Below, one piece after another: positions 10,235-51,270 of a DNA stretch of 64,000 nt. Source of the stretch: a virus (lineage: Duplodnaviria; Heunggongvirae; Uroviricota; Caudoviricetes); IMG/VR virus record IMGVR_UViG_2681813421_000002, positions 22,586 to 86,585 of that record; one strand, written 5' to 3'. The stretch's first letter is position 1; each line of letters starts with the position of its first letter. The notes below the pieces were generated by a model. The model was not told where the DNA came from, ran no database searches, and was given only the letters and a program-made list of their open reading frames with translations. The position numbers and the translations under genes were made by a program.

Positions 10235-10293
10235 CGTGCGGATAATCCGATTATTTGGCAGTTAAATCCCCGGCGTCGCCGGGGATGCAGCAT

Positions 10294-11235
10294 TTAACTA
10301 ACAATCCAGTCCATAGCAATAACATCCTCTGGAGCTAAATCAATAGCATGGATTTTCCCGTCACGGATGGTGCGCCAGTGCTTTCGTGATCCACCTTCGG
10401 GCCACACCCATATACCTTCAGGCCAGGAAGAACGACGACACACTGTTGCGTATCCAGTCCTGATCTTCTCTCTGACGGTATGTAGTGACAGATTATCCTT
10501 TGGGCTTTCAGGCACAGGATGGTGGATTGCCTGAAACATCCCCATCTTTGGATGATACCAGCGTTTATTGCGTGGTTCTGCCTCCGACATCACCTGCTTA
10601 AAGGCTTTCCGGAAGGGGGCCAGGGCCACAATGGAGCGTCGCGCAAGCAAACCATCTGGAGTTAAAAACTCATGCGTATCGGTGGGAATCCGGAAAGCGT
10701 TAACCAGGTTGCGACATTTGGCTTCAGTCAGGCCACATTTCGCCGCCAGCTGGCGGTAGCCAATGTAGCCTTCCGGAATATTGCCTTTCTTTATTTGCTC
10801 GAGTGTTTCAGCGACCATCGATACTTGTGCTGATACCTCGGCTACCTGGGCATTTACGGCGTTGATCCGGCGTTCATGCTCAAGATGCATTTGCGCCATT
10901 TCAGCCAGGATTTCGGCTTTTGATTTTAACTGTACCCGGGCATTCTCCAGTTCGCGCCAGCGGTCCACCAGCCGGGCGGTGAATTCCGGAGAGAGCTGCG
11001 CGACGACAATGATGCTGTCTCGTTTTCCTTGTTCGCCTTCAAATATGTAAGCCTTGGAAAATCGACGAGGGCCAACTGATTGTTTATTTTCAATTTCCAC
11101 AGATTGTGGAAATTGGATCACACTCTTTTTAGCCAGTGTTTCGATAGTTCTCTTCACACTATCTTGGCGACTTCCTACCAGTTCCGCGATCTCAATGCTG
11201 GTCATTGTCGCTTTTTGAGAGATGGACAGATTCAT
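10294..11235 (-). CDS. ant: Antirepressor-like protein (Rha-type N-terminal domain) with C-terminal DUF2829-like extension
   Basis: 313 aa; N-terminus MTSIEIAELVGSRQDSVKRTIETL (Rha/antirepressor family), paralog of 49975-50682; last ~65 aa (VCRRSSW...WVWPEGG...DVIAMDWIVS) resemble DUF2829. Confidence 0.6.
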   Translation of the reverse strand: MNLSISQKATMTSIEIAELVGSRQDSVKRTIETLAKKSVIQFPQSVEIENKQSVGPRRFSKAYIFEGEQGKRDSIIVVAQLSPEFTARLVDRWRELENARVQLKSKAEILAEMAQMHLEHERRINAVNAQVAEVSAQVSMVAETLEQIKKGNIPEGYIGYRQLAAKCGLTEAKCRNLVNAFRIPTDTHEFLTPDGLLARRSIVALAPFRKAFKQVMSEAEPRNKRWYHPKMGMFQAIHHPVPESPKDNLSLHTVREKIRTGYATVCRRSSWPEGIWVWPEGGSRKHWRTIRDGKIHAIDLAPEDVIAMDWIVS

Positions 11236-11450
11236 CAGTGCACCTCCACGCAGTTCATTGGCAGATTCCAGTAATTGAGGATCTCCATCGCATCAAGAGT
11301 GAAGCGTGCGGCAAAAATGCAGGGTTCTTCAGGAAGGTATGAACGAGCTTCTGCTTCGGTTGCAGCCATGACGCAGATATACAGGTGTTTTTGGCAGGAA
11401 TAGAAACGCCAGATAAATTCAGAATGAGTTGGGGTAGGGATAGTAGCCAT
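11235..11450 (-). CDS. icd: Icd-like (Ash family) small protein
   Basis: 71 aa; EFIWRF...KH...AATEAEAR motif as in P1 Icd-like proteins; sits between c4-like RNA region and ant, as in P1 immI. Confidence 0.5.
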   Translation of the reverse strand: MATIPTPTHSEFIWRFYSCQKHLYICVMAATEAEARSYLPEEPCIFAARFTLDAMEILNYWNLPMNCVEVH

Positions 11451-11454
11451 ATTG

Positions 11455-11700
11455 GCAGCCTCCTTTTGCTAATTTAAGGAGCTACCGCGTGAGGTTCCAA
11501 TCTCAATGGCGGTAGCACTGACTGGGTTGGAACTACCGGCGCAAAAGGGAACCGGCCTGCCTTTCGGCAGCCCAGCCAGCACTACCATTGATCTCTGAGC
11601 TAAACGCTACGTATGGCTGTGCGATGGCATGACACAAGAAAAGACGCTTTCGGCGTCTGTGTCGCCTTTTGCATTATCCGGGGTTCCAATCCCGGCACCC
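11455..11700 (-). ncRNA. c4: c4-like antisense RNA region (immI-type) with repeated target elements
   Basis: Two hairpins whose loops carry GGTTCCAATC (plus-strand reading, near 11490-11520 and 11678-11695) and an intervening complementary element GGTTGGAACTACC; layout matches P1 c4 with a1/b1 and a2/b2 sites ahead of icd. Confidence 0.4.
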
Positions 11701-11763
11701 GTTTTTCTAAGGTGCCGTAGAAATATACCCCACGATAATGCCAGGGCGCAACAGTCAGTATTT

Positions 11764-11930
11764 TATGCTTTGGCGGATTTCTTCCGGGCTTGCTTGCAGG
11801 CGTAGGCCATTGCTTTAGCTTTCACTTCATCCAGCTTCCCGGTAATCACTTCTTTTCCGAGAGTGACAAACCAGTCATAGCAACCGCCAGTAATGTTCTT
11901 GATTTGAAAGTTGAGGTAGCGAACAGTCAT
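11764..11930 (-). CDS. Small ORF (55 aa), translationally coupled to a 29-codon ORF upstream
   Basis: MTVRYLNFQIKNITGGCYDWFVTLGKEVITGK...; upstream ORF stop overlaps its ATG (ATGA). Confidence 0.25.
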
Positions 11931-12249
11931 TTTGACTCCCCCAGCGCGAATAAAGAATGCAGATTATCGCGTGAGTGGTGGACGACGAGTGATGGGAAAA
12001 GACTGTAGTTGTTCATAGTGTAGTGACTCCTTGCTTTCGGAGCCGCCATCGACTGTTCCACGGTCTGGTGGCGGCGCAATAAAGGCTGGAACACCGTGAG
12101 TCAACGGGGGCTTTTCAGCCACCTATATTGCACCGCCATAGGTATGGCGGGGGCAATAATACGAAAAACTAAACAGTTTGTCTCAAAAAGTTGACCGGTG
12201 TGCCAATCGGTAGTGAATGTACATCGGAGAAATTTACAATTCAACTTAA

Positions 12250-12269
12250 AATGTTAGAAAACTAATTTA
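12250..12269 (-). promoter_or_regulatory. Operator-like motif (AATTAGTTTTCTAACAT on minus strand)
   Basis: Member of dispersed operator family; lies at 3-prime end of ref-like gene, upstream of the small-ORF/c4-like region. Confidence 0.45.
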
Positions 12270-35733: not shown

Positions 35734-35809
35734 TGGTGGCCCCTACCGGACTTGAACCGGTGACCGTGCGATTATGAGTCGCCAGCTCTAACCACTGAGC
35801 TAAAGGGCC
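35734..35809 (-). tRNA. tRNA with CAU anticodon, Ile2 (lysidine) type
   Basis: 76 nt with encoded CCA; near-identical in acceptor, D and anticodon arms to E. coli ileX-type tRNA as I recall it. Confidence 0.75.
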
Positions 35810-37685: not shown

Positions 37686-37761
37686 TGGTGCCGGTTAACG
37701 GACTCGAACCGCTGACATCCTGCTTACAAGGCAGGCGCTCTACCAACTGAGCTAAACCGGC
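37686..37761 (-). tRNA. tRNA-Thr (anticodon UGU)
   Basis: 76 nt; GCCGGTT acceptor, GCTCAGTTGGTAGAGC D-arm, loop CUUGUAA, T-arm GGTTCGAGTCC, CCA. Confidence 0.8.
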
Positions 37762-37763
37762 AT

Positions 37764-37840
37764 TGGCGATGGTGGGTGGATTCGAACCACCGACCGACAG
37801 CTTAGAAGGCTGCTGCTCTATCCTACTGAGCTACACCATC
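37764..37840 (-). tRNA. tRNA-Arg (anticodon UCU)
   Basis: 77 nt; loop CUUCUAA, T-arm GGTGGTTCGAATCCACC, CCA end. Confidence 0.75.
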
Positions 37841-40304: not shown

Positions 40305-40325
40305 AAATTAGTTTTCTAACATATT
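40305..40325 (+). promoter_or_regulatory. Operator-like motif (AAATTAGTTTTCTAACATATT)
   Basis: 22 bp upstream of the start codon of 39075-40283. Confidence 0.5.
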
Positions 40326-49777: not shown

Positions 49778-49978
49778 TCAAGTCACGATCCAATCATTAC
49801 CGACTATATCAGCCGTCGATAAATAAACTTCCCGGATCTTGAGTCCATTAATACAAAACCATCCGGTAGTAGAGTAATTATCAGGCCAGGCCCATACATC
49901 AATACTCCATGCTTTACGGCGGCACACTTCAGCCTGTCCTTCCCTGATTTTTTTTACCGCCTGCATGATGTCCATCAC
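49778..49978 (-). CDS. DUF2829-like small protein (free-standing counterpart of the ant C-terminal extension at 10294-10490)
   Basis: 66 aa; KIREGQAEVCRRKAWSIDVWAWPDN...DIVGNDWIVT aligns with C-terminus of the 313-aa antirepressor. Confidence 0.5.
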   Translation of the reverse strand: MMDIMQAVKKIREGQAEVCRRKAWSIDVWAWPDNYSTTGWFCINGLKIREVYLSTADIVGNDWIVT

Positions 49979-50682
49979 TCACCTCCCCAACCGATCACCT
50001 GGAATTGCCCCATTTTGGGGTGATACCAGCGTTTTCCTCGGTGTTCAGCCTCCGACATCATCCGGTTAAAAGCATTCATGAAGGGAGATAAGGCCACGAT
50101 GGAACGACGCGACAATACCCCCTCTGGAGTTAAAAACTCATGCGTATCGGTGGGAATCCGGTAAGCGTTGACAAGGTTGCGGCATTTGGCTTCGGTCAGG
50201 CCACATTTCGCAGCCAGCTGGCGGTAGCCAATGTAGCCATCTGGCATATTGCCTTTCTTGATTTGCTCAACGGTTTCAGCGACCTGGCTAACCTTTGACT
50301 CAACAGCATGAAGCCGCTTTTGCTGCTGAACTGCATTTGCAGCCATTGCGGCGATCATCTCTATTTCGGTCAACGGCTGGCGTACTTGTTCTTCCAGTTC
50401 GCGCCAGCGGTCCACCAGCCGGGCGGTGAATTCCGGAGAGAGCTGCGCAACGACAATAATGCTGTCTCGTTTGCCTTGCTCGCCTTCGAAGACGTAGTGT
50501 GAATTTTTAACTTTAAATCCTAAGTTATTGATATTTTCGGAAACCTCCATTGGAGGAAGTGGAATAACACCTGATTTACTCAAGCGTTCAATAGTGCGTT
50601 TAACGTTATCCGGGCGACTTCCCACCAGCTCCGCGATCTCAATGCTGGTCATTGATGGCTTTTCAAGAATGCAGATTTCCAT
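49975..50682 (-). CDS. ant: Antirepressor-like protein (Rha-type), paralog of 10294-11235
   Basis: 235 aa; shares N-terminal (MTSIEIAELVGSR...) and central (YIGYRQLAAKCGLTEAKCRNLVNA) blocks with the other copy. Confidence 0.6.
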   Translation of the reverse strand: MEICILEKPSMTSIEIAELVGSRPDNVKRTIERLSKSGVIPLPPMEVSENINNLGFKVKNSHYVFEGEQGKRDSIIVVAQLSPEFTARLVDRWRELEEQVRQPLTEIEMIAAMAANAVQQQKRLHAVESKVSQVAETVEQIKKGNMPDGYIGYRQLAAKCGLTEAKCRNLVNAYRIPTDTHEFLTPEGVLSRRSIVALSPFMNAFNRMMSEAEHRGKRWYHPKMGQFQVIGWGGE

Positions 50683-50906
50683 CAGTGTGCCTCCGCAATT
50701 CCGGGATTGGTAATATTGCGATACCAGGGATTAGTGTTTGGTTGTGGGGAAGTAGAGAAACGACCAGTAAGAACACCATACTGATCAGGGATCAGAGAAC
50801 GGGCTTCTTTTTCGGTTGCGGCAATTGCGAAGTGATCGCAGTGTTTTTGCAGGGAGTGGAAACGCCAGATAAATTCCGGGCGCGAGCAAGGATTGGCATT
50901 AACCAT
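50682..50906 (-). CDS. icd: Icd-like (Ash family) small protein, second copy
   Basis: EFIWRFHSLQKH...AATEKEAR; the track ORF extends further 5-prime into what I read as noncoding RNA sequence. Confidence 0.45.
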   Translation of the reverse strand: MVNANPCSRPEFIWRFHSLQKHCDHFAIAATEKEARSLIPDQYGVLTGRFSTSPQPNTNPWYRNITNPGIAEAH

Positions 50907-51248: not shown

Positions 51249-51270
51249 AAATTAATTTTCTAACACAAAT
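51249..51270 (+). promoter_or_regulatory. Operator-like motif (AAATTAATTTTCTAACACAAAT)
   Basis: Upstream of the second c4/icd/ant-like module. Confidence 0.5.

Follow-up and report, generated by a model that had tools for sequence, protein, structure and literature searches.

Evidence for a complete immI-type module, with a probable C4 antisense switch on icd and ant, in a D6-like plasmid prophage

The minus-strand region 11751-10264 of the window, that is, of the whole 64 kb stretch of DNA that was analysed, is very probably a complete immI-type module belonging to a D6-like plasmid prophage related to P1, in which a C4 antisense RNA would act as a switch that holds off an icd-like gene, for a cell-division inhibitor, and an anti-repressor gene (ant). 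Family membership, architecture, complementarity, covariation and gene identities are the data on which this assignment of the region, hereafter module 1, rests. Phage D6 and the window share ~95% identity, and homologues of c4, icd and the anti-repressor in D6-like prophages have previously been noted in the literature, which together indicate that the element in module 1 was already known. Its C4 element is an ordinary member of an already described family, and the leader of module 1 was found in 340 of 5,426 complete E. coli genomes, chiefly on plasmids. One E. coli plasmid with 100% identity is pGF4-B (NZ_CP172219).

The C4 antisense RNA gene (11505..11592, minus strand) matches the Rfam C4 model (RF01695) along the full model, positions 1-87, with 76.7 bits against a gathering score of 45. 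The minimum-free-energy fold of C4 alone (-46.6 kcal/mol, z = -5.27) is the structure of the Rfam model, with a long closing stem around two hairpins and a single-stranded joint. The region as a whole (291 nt) also folds better than 200 of 200 shuffles (z = -4.79). In the alignment of relatives, the internal helices of C4 are 96% paired with compensatory change at 14 pairs, and the three C4 helices are 99.7-100% paired with compensatory change at 13 of their pairs. The ends of C4 were mapped by alignment with the annotated 77-nt c4 RNA of P1, which places the predicted mature RNA at 11586-11508 (79 nt). By analogy with P1, C4 would be excised to an RNA of ~80 nt; Hartmann et al. are said to have found in 1995 that RNase P acts at the 5' end of P1 C4 in its processing to ~77 nt.

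Upstream of C4 lies an isrK-type leader RNA carrying the elements a1 and b1 (11637..11715, minus strand), which matches the Rfam isrK model (RF01394) at model positions 1-77 with 59.4 bits against a gathering score of 50. In the minus-strand fold, hairpin 1 occupies 11715-11695 and hairpin 2 occupies 11694-11679, the latter holding a1 in its loop, and both the fold and a terminator scan recognize an intrinsic terminator with a stem at 11658-11642 followed by UUUUCUU. The leader thus combines two 5' hairpins with a Rho-independent terminator-like site, as is characteristic of isrK. Identity with c4-a1b1 (RF03163) was rejected, as that model reaches only 22.4 bits at 11728-11675 against a gathering score of 46.7. 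The P1 immI order of a1/b1, c4 and a2/b2 that had been recognized initially is borne out by the C4 match and by a feature-by-feature correspondence with the annotated P1 operon, with the reservation that the leader is of the isrK type and not of the c4-a1b1 type. The element also extends beyond the upper boundary at 11700 that had been given to it, as the first hairpin runs up to 11715 and the promoter-like hexamers to 11751.

These hexamers (11722..11751, minus strand) comprise a -35 TTGCGC at 11751-11746, an 18-nt spacer and a -10 TATATT at 11727-11722, and form a putative promoter from which transcription of the leader is predicted to start at ~11715. The consensus promoter scanner did not call it. 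The same geometry and the same -10 are found upstream of isrK in Gifsy-1 (TTGACA-18-TATATT), where PisrK has been experimentally defined (PMC4825925). In alignment A3, the -35 hexamer TTGCGC (TTGCGT in 4 rows) and the spacing are conserved, and the -10 hexamer varies between lineages. A search for the P1 C1 operator consensus (Op51-type) found no site in the 64 kb window, even allowing 3 mismatches, and a candidate D6-type operator motif, absent from the promoter of module 1, is present at two further C4-type loci of the window, module 0 and module 2.

Two sets of repeated and complementary elements link the leader, C4 and the region just ahead of icd. Exactly two copies of the plus-strand 10-mer GGTTCCAATC are present in the 64 kb window (11493-11502 and 11682-11691), and read on the minus strand both form an identical 8-nt loop, AUUGGAAC, over a 4-bp stem; the two hairpins with a shared loop element described in the initial annotation are accordingly present as described. 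The first is the a1 hairpin (11694-11679), in which a1 reads UUGGAAC at 11689-11683, and the second is the a2 hairpin (11490..11505, minus strand; stem UGAG/CUCA), which carries a2, again UUGGAAC, at 11500-11494 within its loop. The complement reported between them was likewise recovered as GGTTGGAAC at 11525-11533 of the plus strand, from which a' (GUUCCAA, minus strand 11533-11527) falls in the single-stranded joint of C4. A second triple with the same layout had been overlooked: GCAAAAGG is found at b1 (11672-11665), single-stranded in the leader fold, and at b2 (11469-11462), and C4 hairpin 2 presents their complement b', CCUUUUGC (11548-11541), in its loop. The b2 element overlaps the Shine-Dalgarno (SD) sequence of icd, AAGGAGG at 11465-11459 (combined feature 11459..11469, minus strand), its placement with respect to icd matching that in P1, and this overlap of b2 with the SD is kept in all variants and in P1. 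A local hairpin that would sequester the SD (11487-11454) was considered and rejected, being neither significant (z = -1.57) nor conserved in other subtypes.

Conservation of the complementary elements was examined in 39 distinct relatives or leaders, closely related to each other, in which the contacts stay fully or almost fully paired. The a'/a2 contact is 100% paired with both sides changed at 4 of 7 pairs, the b'/b2 contact is 100% paired with both sides changed at 3 of 8 pairs, and pairing reaches 99.8% for a1/a' and b1/b'. Compensatory changes thus affect 7 of the 15 a and b pairs, and seven specificity combinations occur among the relatives; the words of the window, UUGGAAC and GCAAAAGG, compare with UUGAGAC and GCAAAAGG in D6. 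The covariation score was 0.41, as against 0.13 in shuffles, and sliding the partners by 1-3 columns gave no more than 0.12. We regard this covariation as strong comparative evidence that the antisense contacts are real. Because the sequences used are closely related, part of the signal could come from recombination of pre-matched segments and not from independent compensatory mutation.

The two downstream genes are consistent with such a switch. The icd-like gene (11235..11450, minus strand) encodes 71 aa with 63% identity to P1 Icd (E = 6e-28), exceeds the cutoff of NCBIfam NF033153 phage_ICD_like (49.4 bits against 25) and belongs to phrog_1426, in agreement with its earlier designation. 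It is followed by a 313-aa Rha-like anti-repressor gene (10294..11235, minus strand), which matches phrog_63 'anti-repressor Ant' (E = 2.9e-60), shows a weak match to Pfam Phage_pRha below the cutoff, and is 65% identical to its paralogue in module 2. The description of this gene as ant-like is thus upheld in the sense of a phrog_63 anti-repressor and fails as regards homology to P1 Ant1 (BLASTP E = 0.32), of which it is a functional analogue only. As the protein is not homologous to P1 Ant1/Ant2, its target is assumed to be a C1-like repressor. The ant AUG and the icd stop codon have one base in common (UGAUG), and this overlap makes translational coupling of the two genes probable. Directly past the ant stop, a GC-rich hairpin read from the sequence (CCCCGGC-GAC-GCCGGGG, then AUUU; 10264..10284, minus strand) is possibly, with low confidence, the operon terminator; the terminator scan did not call it.

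From these features we infer the promoter, the processing, the translational block and coupling, the target of the anti-repressor and the decoy role of the leader as parts of the following model. Transcription from the promoter at ~11751-11722 would produce a leader with a1, in a hairpin loop, and b1, ending at the intrinsic terminator, and read-through transcripts would contain C4, from which an RNA of ~79 nt may be excised. From a hairpin loop of C4, b' would pair with b2 (8 bp, on the SD), and from the single-stranded joint a' would pair with a2 (7 bp, in a hairpin loop); this pairing just upstream of icd would block icd translation. Since the ant start lies on the icd stop codon, synthesis of the anti-repressor would be blocked as well and the main prophage repressor would remain active. 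Antisense masking of the icd/ant ribosome-binding region, as initially envisaged, is favoured by the position of b2 and by the contacts that covary, and c4 has been described as blocking the ant mRNA at the ribosome-binding site (PMC12197685). Immunity specificity would be set by the 7-nt and 8-nt elements, which differ among otherwise near-identical phages; the heteroimmunity of P1 and P7 has been attributed to small ImmI differences (PMC6906374). The a1/b1 copy may pair with the same surfaces of C4, and by analogy with IsrK, its homologue in Gifsy-1, the short terminated leader probably counteracts C4 and turns the operon on.

How the leader acts could also be read differently. An IsrK-type positive switch may be the main device, in which the short leader (11715-~11636) binds a'/b', on the read-through transcript or on free C4, and activates icd/ant translation; we give this reading a little less than an even chance, and it complements the C4 repressor model. 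It is suggested by the leader itself, which belongs to the isrK family and has a terminator of its own, and by the a1/b1 elements, whose covariation with a'/b' is as tight as that of a2/b2, indicating that this contact is under selection. The isrK locus of Gifsy-1 has the same isrK-C4-antirepressor layout, and experiments there have established both a processed RNA of ~80 nt, STnc1160, and the ability of the short IsrK to trans-activate anti-repressor translation, 139-fold in a translation fusion (PMC4825925). However, this model comes from Gifsy-1 and not from a P1- or D6-type phage; isrK as a short Hfq-binding trans-activating RNA has been demonstrated only for Gifsy-1 (PMC4825925). The GenBank record of P1 labels a1/b1 just as 'putative' sites, and the natural variant L033 persists despite a mismatch between a1 and a'. 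Moreover, the Gifsy-1 authors invoke alternative cis structures, and constitutive STnc1160 failed to counteract IsrK toxicity (PMC4825925), a result that also fits a simple decoy model poorly.

Compared with the translational block by C4 that we favour, a mechanism of the P4 type, in which the C4-like RNA pairs with flanking repeats and mainly causes premature termination, appears improbable. The identical repeat-RNA-repeat layout, the intrinsic terminator between b1 and C4, and the SeqA/CI analogy drawn by the Gifsy-1 authors speak for it. The overlap of b2 with the SD in every variant suggests ribosome exclusion instead, and the terminator scan found no terminator-like site between b2 and icd. 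Loss of P1 ant transcription reportedly follows from blocked icd translation through Rho polarity, a finding ascribed to Biere et al. in 1992.

We consider it quite improbable that the sequence is conserved as the gene of a small 'Ash family' protein, with the repeats being incidental. A 39-aa ORF over the C4 gene (11469..11588, minus strand) carries the PGAP label 'ash family protein' in a plasmid of 100% identity and matches Pfam PF10554 with 33 bits; it is open in most lineages, where it either stops 18 nt short of the icd AUG or continues in-frame into the downstream gene. The orf45 of Gifsy-1, in the same position, was detected by tagging and is required for coupling (PMC4825925), and in a weaker form of this explanation translation of a leader ORF brings ribosomes to icd. 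Nevertheless, the peptides diverge strongly among C4 subtypes while base pairs are kept through compensatory changes, the ORF of P1 ends after 14 codons, and no NCBIfam model matches, so that the annotated ORF most probably reflects artefactual translation of the RNA gene, or could at most be a leader ORF. The idea that short intergenic repeats and hairpins fell into this arrangement by chance is refuted: a single 7-mer triple arises in 2.2% of dinucleotide-preserving shuffles of the 306-nt leader, but just 4 of 20,000 contained two x..rc(x)..x triples that were separate and 7 nt or longer, and chance would also have to produce two Rfam matches above gathering scores and contacts that covary perfectly in relatives.

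Two other C4-type modules are present in the window. Module 2, at 50.9-51.2 kb, is a true P1-type copy whose leader reaches the c4-a1b1 model with 52.2 bits; it and P1 have the same architecture as module 1 and wholly different a/b words, matched within each. A third C4-like RNA, module 0 (12064..12143, minus strand), scores 40.2 bits with the Rfam C4 model, below the gathering score of 45, and has a C4-shaped fold (z = -4.77). It lies upstream of module 1 in the same orientation, from where it may feed transcription towards module 1. Its b' (UGACUC, 12103-12098) and a' (UGUUCCA, 12093-12087) have downstream partners in UGGAACA at 12060-12054 and in GAGUCA at 12029-12024; this second partner falls within the SD region of a 29-aa ORF (12016-11927). 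Module 0 is conserved in D6-like loci, and its specificity elements are identical in 13 distinct copies and in 27 viral-contig stretches from a degenerate-pattern scan; because they are invariant, no covariation signal could be obtained for this module. Among the three C4 RNAs, cognate pairs usually gave the best duplex energies, which the GC-rich flanks made uninformative, and orthogonality was judged by exact complementarity instead. As a tentative and rather unlikely reading, D6-like prophages may possess three layered, mutually orthogonal C4 locks (12143-12064, the isrK-type one and the P1-type one at 51 kb), with the a1/b1 leaders across the whole family as trans-acting anti-antisense decoys, each opening its own lock; the first lock would gate two small ORFs, of 29 and 55 aa, and transcribe into module 1, and the other two would guard paralogous icd-ant cassettes. 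If true, this reading would bring together the literature on P1 c4 and that on Salmonella IsrK, which recent reviews present as separate systems.

Module 1 would set the choice of a resident plasmid prophage between remaining silent and making the anti-repressor. D6/P1-like elements are commonly found in E. coli, Shigella and Salmonella and often co-travel with resistance plasmids, so the control of their induction is of practical interest. The 7-nt and 8-nt words are candidate determinants of mutual immunity among related phages, and the seven covarying natural specificity types provide a ready panel of orthogonal RNA-RNA pairs. For annotation, GenBank/PGAP records of D6/P1-like elements omit the RNA genes and call a doubtful 'ash family protein' over C4, and one biological element is described by two Rfam models, isrK and c4-a1b1.

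Among known systems, module 1 agrees with the immI of P1 and P7 in the order and sizes of its RNA elements (7-nt a, 8-nt b and an RNA of ~77-79 nt), in the location of b' in a loop, a' in the joint and b2 on the icd ribosome-binding site, and in an Icd of 63% identity, the icd/ant overlap and phage-specific specificity words. Unlike P1 and P7, module 1 has a leader that fits isrK and not c4-a1b1, a Rha/phrog_63-like anti-repressor unrelated to Ant1/Ant2, and no Op51-type C1 operator; its upstream neighbours are ref, the third C4-like RNA and small ORFs, in contrast to sim in P1. Similarly, the isrK-orf45(STnc1160)-anrP locus of Gifsy-1 and the loci of Stx phages have isrK followed by C4 and an anti-repressor-type gene, with the same promoter geometry and with a/b words that match within each locus. 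In Gifsy-1, isrK (79 bits) is directly followed by C4 (69 bits) and then by anrP. These loci differ from module 1 in having no icd, the regulator gene following C4 directly, and their downstream proteins are of a different Rha/anti-repressor lineage; the module 1 Ant shows negligible homology to the regulator that follows isrK/C4 in Stx phages. The published Gifsy-1 model comprises orf45 and alternative structures and no C4 antisense RNA (PMC4825925). We observed that the 'orf45'/STnc1160 region matches the Rfam C4 model. Counted on the Gifsy-1 sequence, the published mutations at G28/G31 of IsrK fall within a1 and those at C162/C159 of orf45 within a'. The CI RNA of satellite phage P4, likened here by description, is also a small RNA processed from between complementary repeats (seqA/seqC) of one transcript, but it acts by premature transcription termination of the P4 replication operon. 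Finally, the sar RNA of P22 resembles C4 as a small antisense RNA that prevents anti-repressor translation (PMC12197685); sar is encoded on the strand opposite to its target (cis-antisense), whereas C4 lies on the same strand, is co-transcribed with its target and would act through short loop contacts.

On the minus strand, the region ahead of the icd-like gene of module 1, the immI-type module spanning 11751-10264, carries two sets of repeated and complementary elements. Within the window there are exactly two copies of the plus-strand 10-mer GGTTCCAATC (11493-11502 and 11682-11691). Read on the minus strand, each becomes a hairpin with a 4-bp stem and the same loop of 8 nt, AUUGGAAC; between the two hairpins lies GUUCCAA (11533-11527, minus strand), complementary to the loop element. 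The initial annotation had described this pair of hairpin loops and the complement between them, which is confirmed, and had thus seen the a elements; it had overlooked the b set, which has equal geometry and consists of GCAAAAGG at 11672-11665 and 11469-11462 together with its complement CCUUUUGC at 11548-11541 (all minus strand). When the leader was shuffled 20,000 times in a dinucleotide-preserving manner, 4 shuffles contained two separate triples of word, reverse complement and word; the arrangement is far beyond chance, and a chance origin is excluded.

The proposed P1 immI-like layout of upstream target copies (a1/b1), c4 and targets ahead of icd (a2/b2) is borne out by a match to the Rfam C4 antisense RNA model (11592-11505, minus strand; 76.7 bits, gathering score 45) and by alignment to P1, whose RefSeq record lists promoters P51a/b with the C1 operator Op51, a1 (7 nt), b1 (8 nt), a 77-nt c4 RNA, a2, b2 (“repression of icd ant translation”), icd and ant1/ant2. 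In the alignment to the window, every element falls in the same order. This alignment predicts a mature C4 of 79 nt (11586-11508, minus strand) in which the second hairpin carries the contact surface b' in its loop and a' occupies a single-stranded joint, and the predicted RNA folds on its own into that same C4 shape (-46.6 kcal/mol, z = -5.27). The leader matches the Rfam isrK model (11715-11637, minus strand; 59.4 bits against a gathering score of 50) and fails the c4-a1b1 model at 22.4 bits. A candidate promoter (-35 TTGCGC, 11751-11746; -10 TATATT, 11727-11722; minus strand) is suggested by identical geometry upstream of Gifsy-1 isrK; its hexamers were not reported by a consensus promoter scanner. 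The U tract of the leader terminator (11636-11641, minus strand) reads UUUUCUU in the window and in one compared locus (L005) and UUUUUUU in most relatives, a variant that might raise read-through into C4, icd and ant.

Downstream, b2 lies across the Shine-Dalgarno sequence (AAGGAGG) of the icd-like gene, an ORF of 71 aa whose product shares 63% identity with P1 Icd and passes the NCBIfam Icd-like model. The start of the following 313-aa ORF overlaps the icd stop codon (UGAUG); its designation as ant-like is upheld by membership of phrog_63 “anti-repressor Ant” (E = 2.9e-60), and homology to P1 Ant1 was ruled out by direct comparison. The C-terminal ~60 residues of this protein constitute a phrog_7385 domain (10294-10490, minus strand), which in module 2, a second immI module, forms a separate 66-aa ORF (49778-49978, minus strand) downstream of a shorter Ant, so that the two Ant paralogues differ by a gene fusion or split.

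Scanning viral contigs with Icd proteins yielded 80 loci, from which 39 distinct leaders were aligned. In these relatives, a'/a2 and b'/b2 were paired in 100% of cells and a1/a' and b1/b' in 99.8%, with changes on both sides in 7 of the 15 contact pairs; the covariation score was 0.41, compared with 0.13 in shuffles (none of 500 reached 0.41) and at most 0.12 when partners were slid by 1-3 columns. The helices of C4 and leader were 96% paired, with 14 compensatory pairs. The a elements fall into the specificity types UUGGAAC, UUGAGAC and UUGG(U/C)CU and the b elements into GCAAAAGG, GUCAAAGG and GUCUAAGG, in seven combinations, including UUGGAAC/GCAAAAGG in the window and UUGAGAC/GCAAAAGG in Escherichia phage D6. 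As the a and b elements interleave along the leader, matched sets could not result from one simple exchange; the compared leaders are closely related, however, and exchange of already matched segments by recombination may account for part of the covariation signal. The specificity-type reading fits P1/P7 heteroimmunity, which has been ascribed to small ImmI differences (PMC6906374). One locus (L033, 2201-2506) combines an a1 of the UUGAGAC type with UUGGAAC-type a' and a2; this probable recombinant, whose upstream site no longer matches C4, could act as a natural test of a1 function.

The P1 model is the best-supported mechanism for module 1. C4 would be cut from the operon's own transcript, and its b' and a' would pair with b2 and a2, excluding ribosomes from icd; because ant would be coupled to icd, no anti-repressor would be made and the prophage would stay repressed. 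We infer all three of C4 processing, icd/ant coupling and the anti-repressor target. Covariation of a1/b1 with C4 is as tight as that of the downstream targets, so the a1/b1-C4 contact is under selection too. In view of the leader's own terminator and of the Gifsy-1 data, the leader could plausibly, if still tentatively, serve as a short decoy RNA relieving C4 repression. A P4-like termination mechanism is less likely, as b2 always lies on the Shine-Dalgarno sequence. The 39-aa ORF on C4 (11469-11588, minus strand), called by PGAP as “ash family protein”, matched by Pfam PF10554 (Phage_ASH, 33 bits) and open in most lineages, is at most a leader ORF; the peptide varies between C4 subtypes while the base pairs are kept, and in P1 this ORF stops after 14 codons. 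Another compared locus (L086, 1363-1482) likewise has an “ash family”/PF10554 call that is a translation of the C4 RNA gene. Since the C4 subtypes share no conserved peptide, the ash protein family may, in the main, be an artefact of RNA conservation.

Directly upstream of module 1 and co-oriented with it lies module 0, a possible third, unannotated C4-like RNA (12143-12064, minus strand), which folds like C4 (z = -4.77) and whose score of 40.2 bits with the Rfam C4 model stays under the gathering score of 45. Two pairings connect it to sequence downstream, one between its loop UGACUC and GAGUCA in the Shine-Dalgarno region of a 29-aa ORF (11927-12016, minus strand), the other between its joint UGUUCCA and UGGAACA (12060-12054). 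The 29-aa ORF is followed by a 55-aa ORF (phrog_7786; 11763-11930, minus strand) ending 12 nt before the module 1 promoter, and a degenerate a1-like hairpin, followed by a U5 run (12208-12193), lies further upstream of module 0. D6-like loci keep module 0 and, in contrast to module 1, show no variation in its specificity elements. In addition, the 15-mer TTAGAAAAYTAATTT has 13 sites in the window at up to two mismatches, against 0.36 expected, for example at 12254-12268 (plus strand), 40305-40319 and 51249-51263 (both minus strand). One of them is found 10 bp upstream of the -35 hexamer of module 0, and another overlaps a P51a-like -35 hexamer of module 2; none of the 13 lies at the module 1 promoter, and the P1 operator consensus was not found in the window. 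TTAGAAAAYTAATTT is probably the operator of the D6-type C1 repressor.

The 2.1 kb around module 1 are 95% identical to phage D6, a P1-related plasmid prophage, whose annotation of this region comprises a Ref-like nuclease, three hypothetical proteins, an Icd-like protein, anti-repressor Ant and PmgF, and no RNA features. E. coli plasmids in RefSeq carry the 306-nt leader at 100% identity; among 5,426 complete E. coli genomes it was found in 340, mostly plasmid-borne, and related copies occur in 456 plasmid records from Escherichia, Salmonella, Shigella and Klebsiella. The window also holds three tRNA genes (35737-35809, 37689-37761 and 37767-37840, minus strand; Rfam tRNA, 65-75 bits), as is usual in P1/D6-like phages. 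An ImmI-related region with homologues of antisense RNA c4, icd and an anti-repressor, as well as a second c4/icd region, has been reported for the D6-like plasmid pYU39_89 (PMC6799933), and curated Rfam models pick up both module 1 RNAs; the module 1 finding, though correct, is thus already known. Interest lies rather in the side results, namely the covarying specificity types as a natural panel, isrK and the a1/b1 leader as equivalents, and the possible third C4-like RNA.

The two complete modules belong to two sub-families, both represented in the window. The leader and C4 of P1 itself align best with module 2, not module 1, and module 2 is of the true P1 type (51159-50954, minus strand; c4-a1b1 52.2 bits, C4 71.9 bits). 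Its genes (50682-50906, 49975-50682 and 49778-49978, minus strand) include icd and ant paralogues of module 1, its Icd sharing 61% identity with P1 Icd and its Ant 65% with module 1 Ant, and its words are orthogonal (UUUAGCAG with CUGCUAA; ACGAAUG with CAUUCGU). Module 1 instead resembles the annotated isrK and C4 pairs of Stx2 phages and the Gifsy-1 isrK locus (L085, 34131-34329, minus strand), where isrK/C4 is followed by anrP. Upstream of anrP, the same bases match isrK (79 bits) and c4-a1b1 (48 bits), and a 69-bit C4 match follows, so the Gifsy-1 “orf45”/STnc1160 region matches the C4 model; counted on the Gifsy-1 sequence, the published IsrK G28/G31 and orf45 C162/C159 mutations fall in a1 and a'. 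In Gifsy-1, a processed RNA of ~80 nt has been shown and short IsrK trans-activates anti-repressor translation, and that study names P4 SeqA/CI, not P1 c4, as an analogue (PMC4825925). The Rfam isrK model has no clan, whereas c4-a1b1 belongs to the C4 clan, and a 2025 review still keeps IsrK and c4 as separate entries. IsrK and c4, though described separately in the literature consulted, appear to form a single family.
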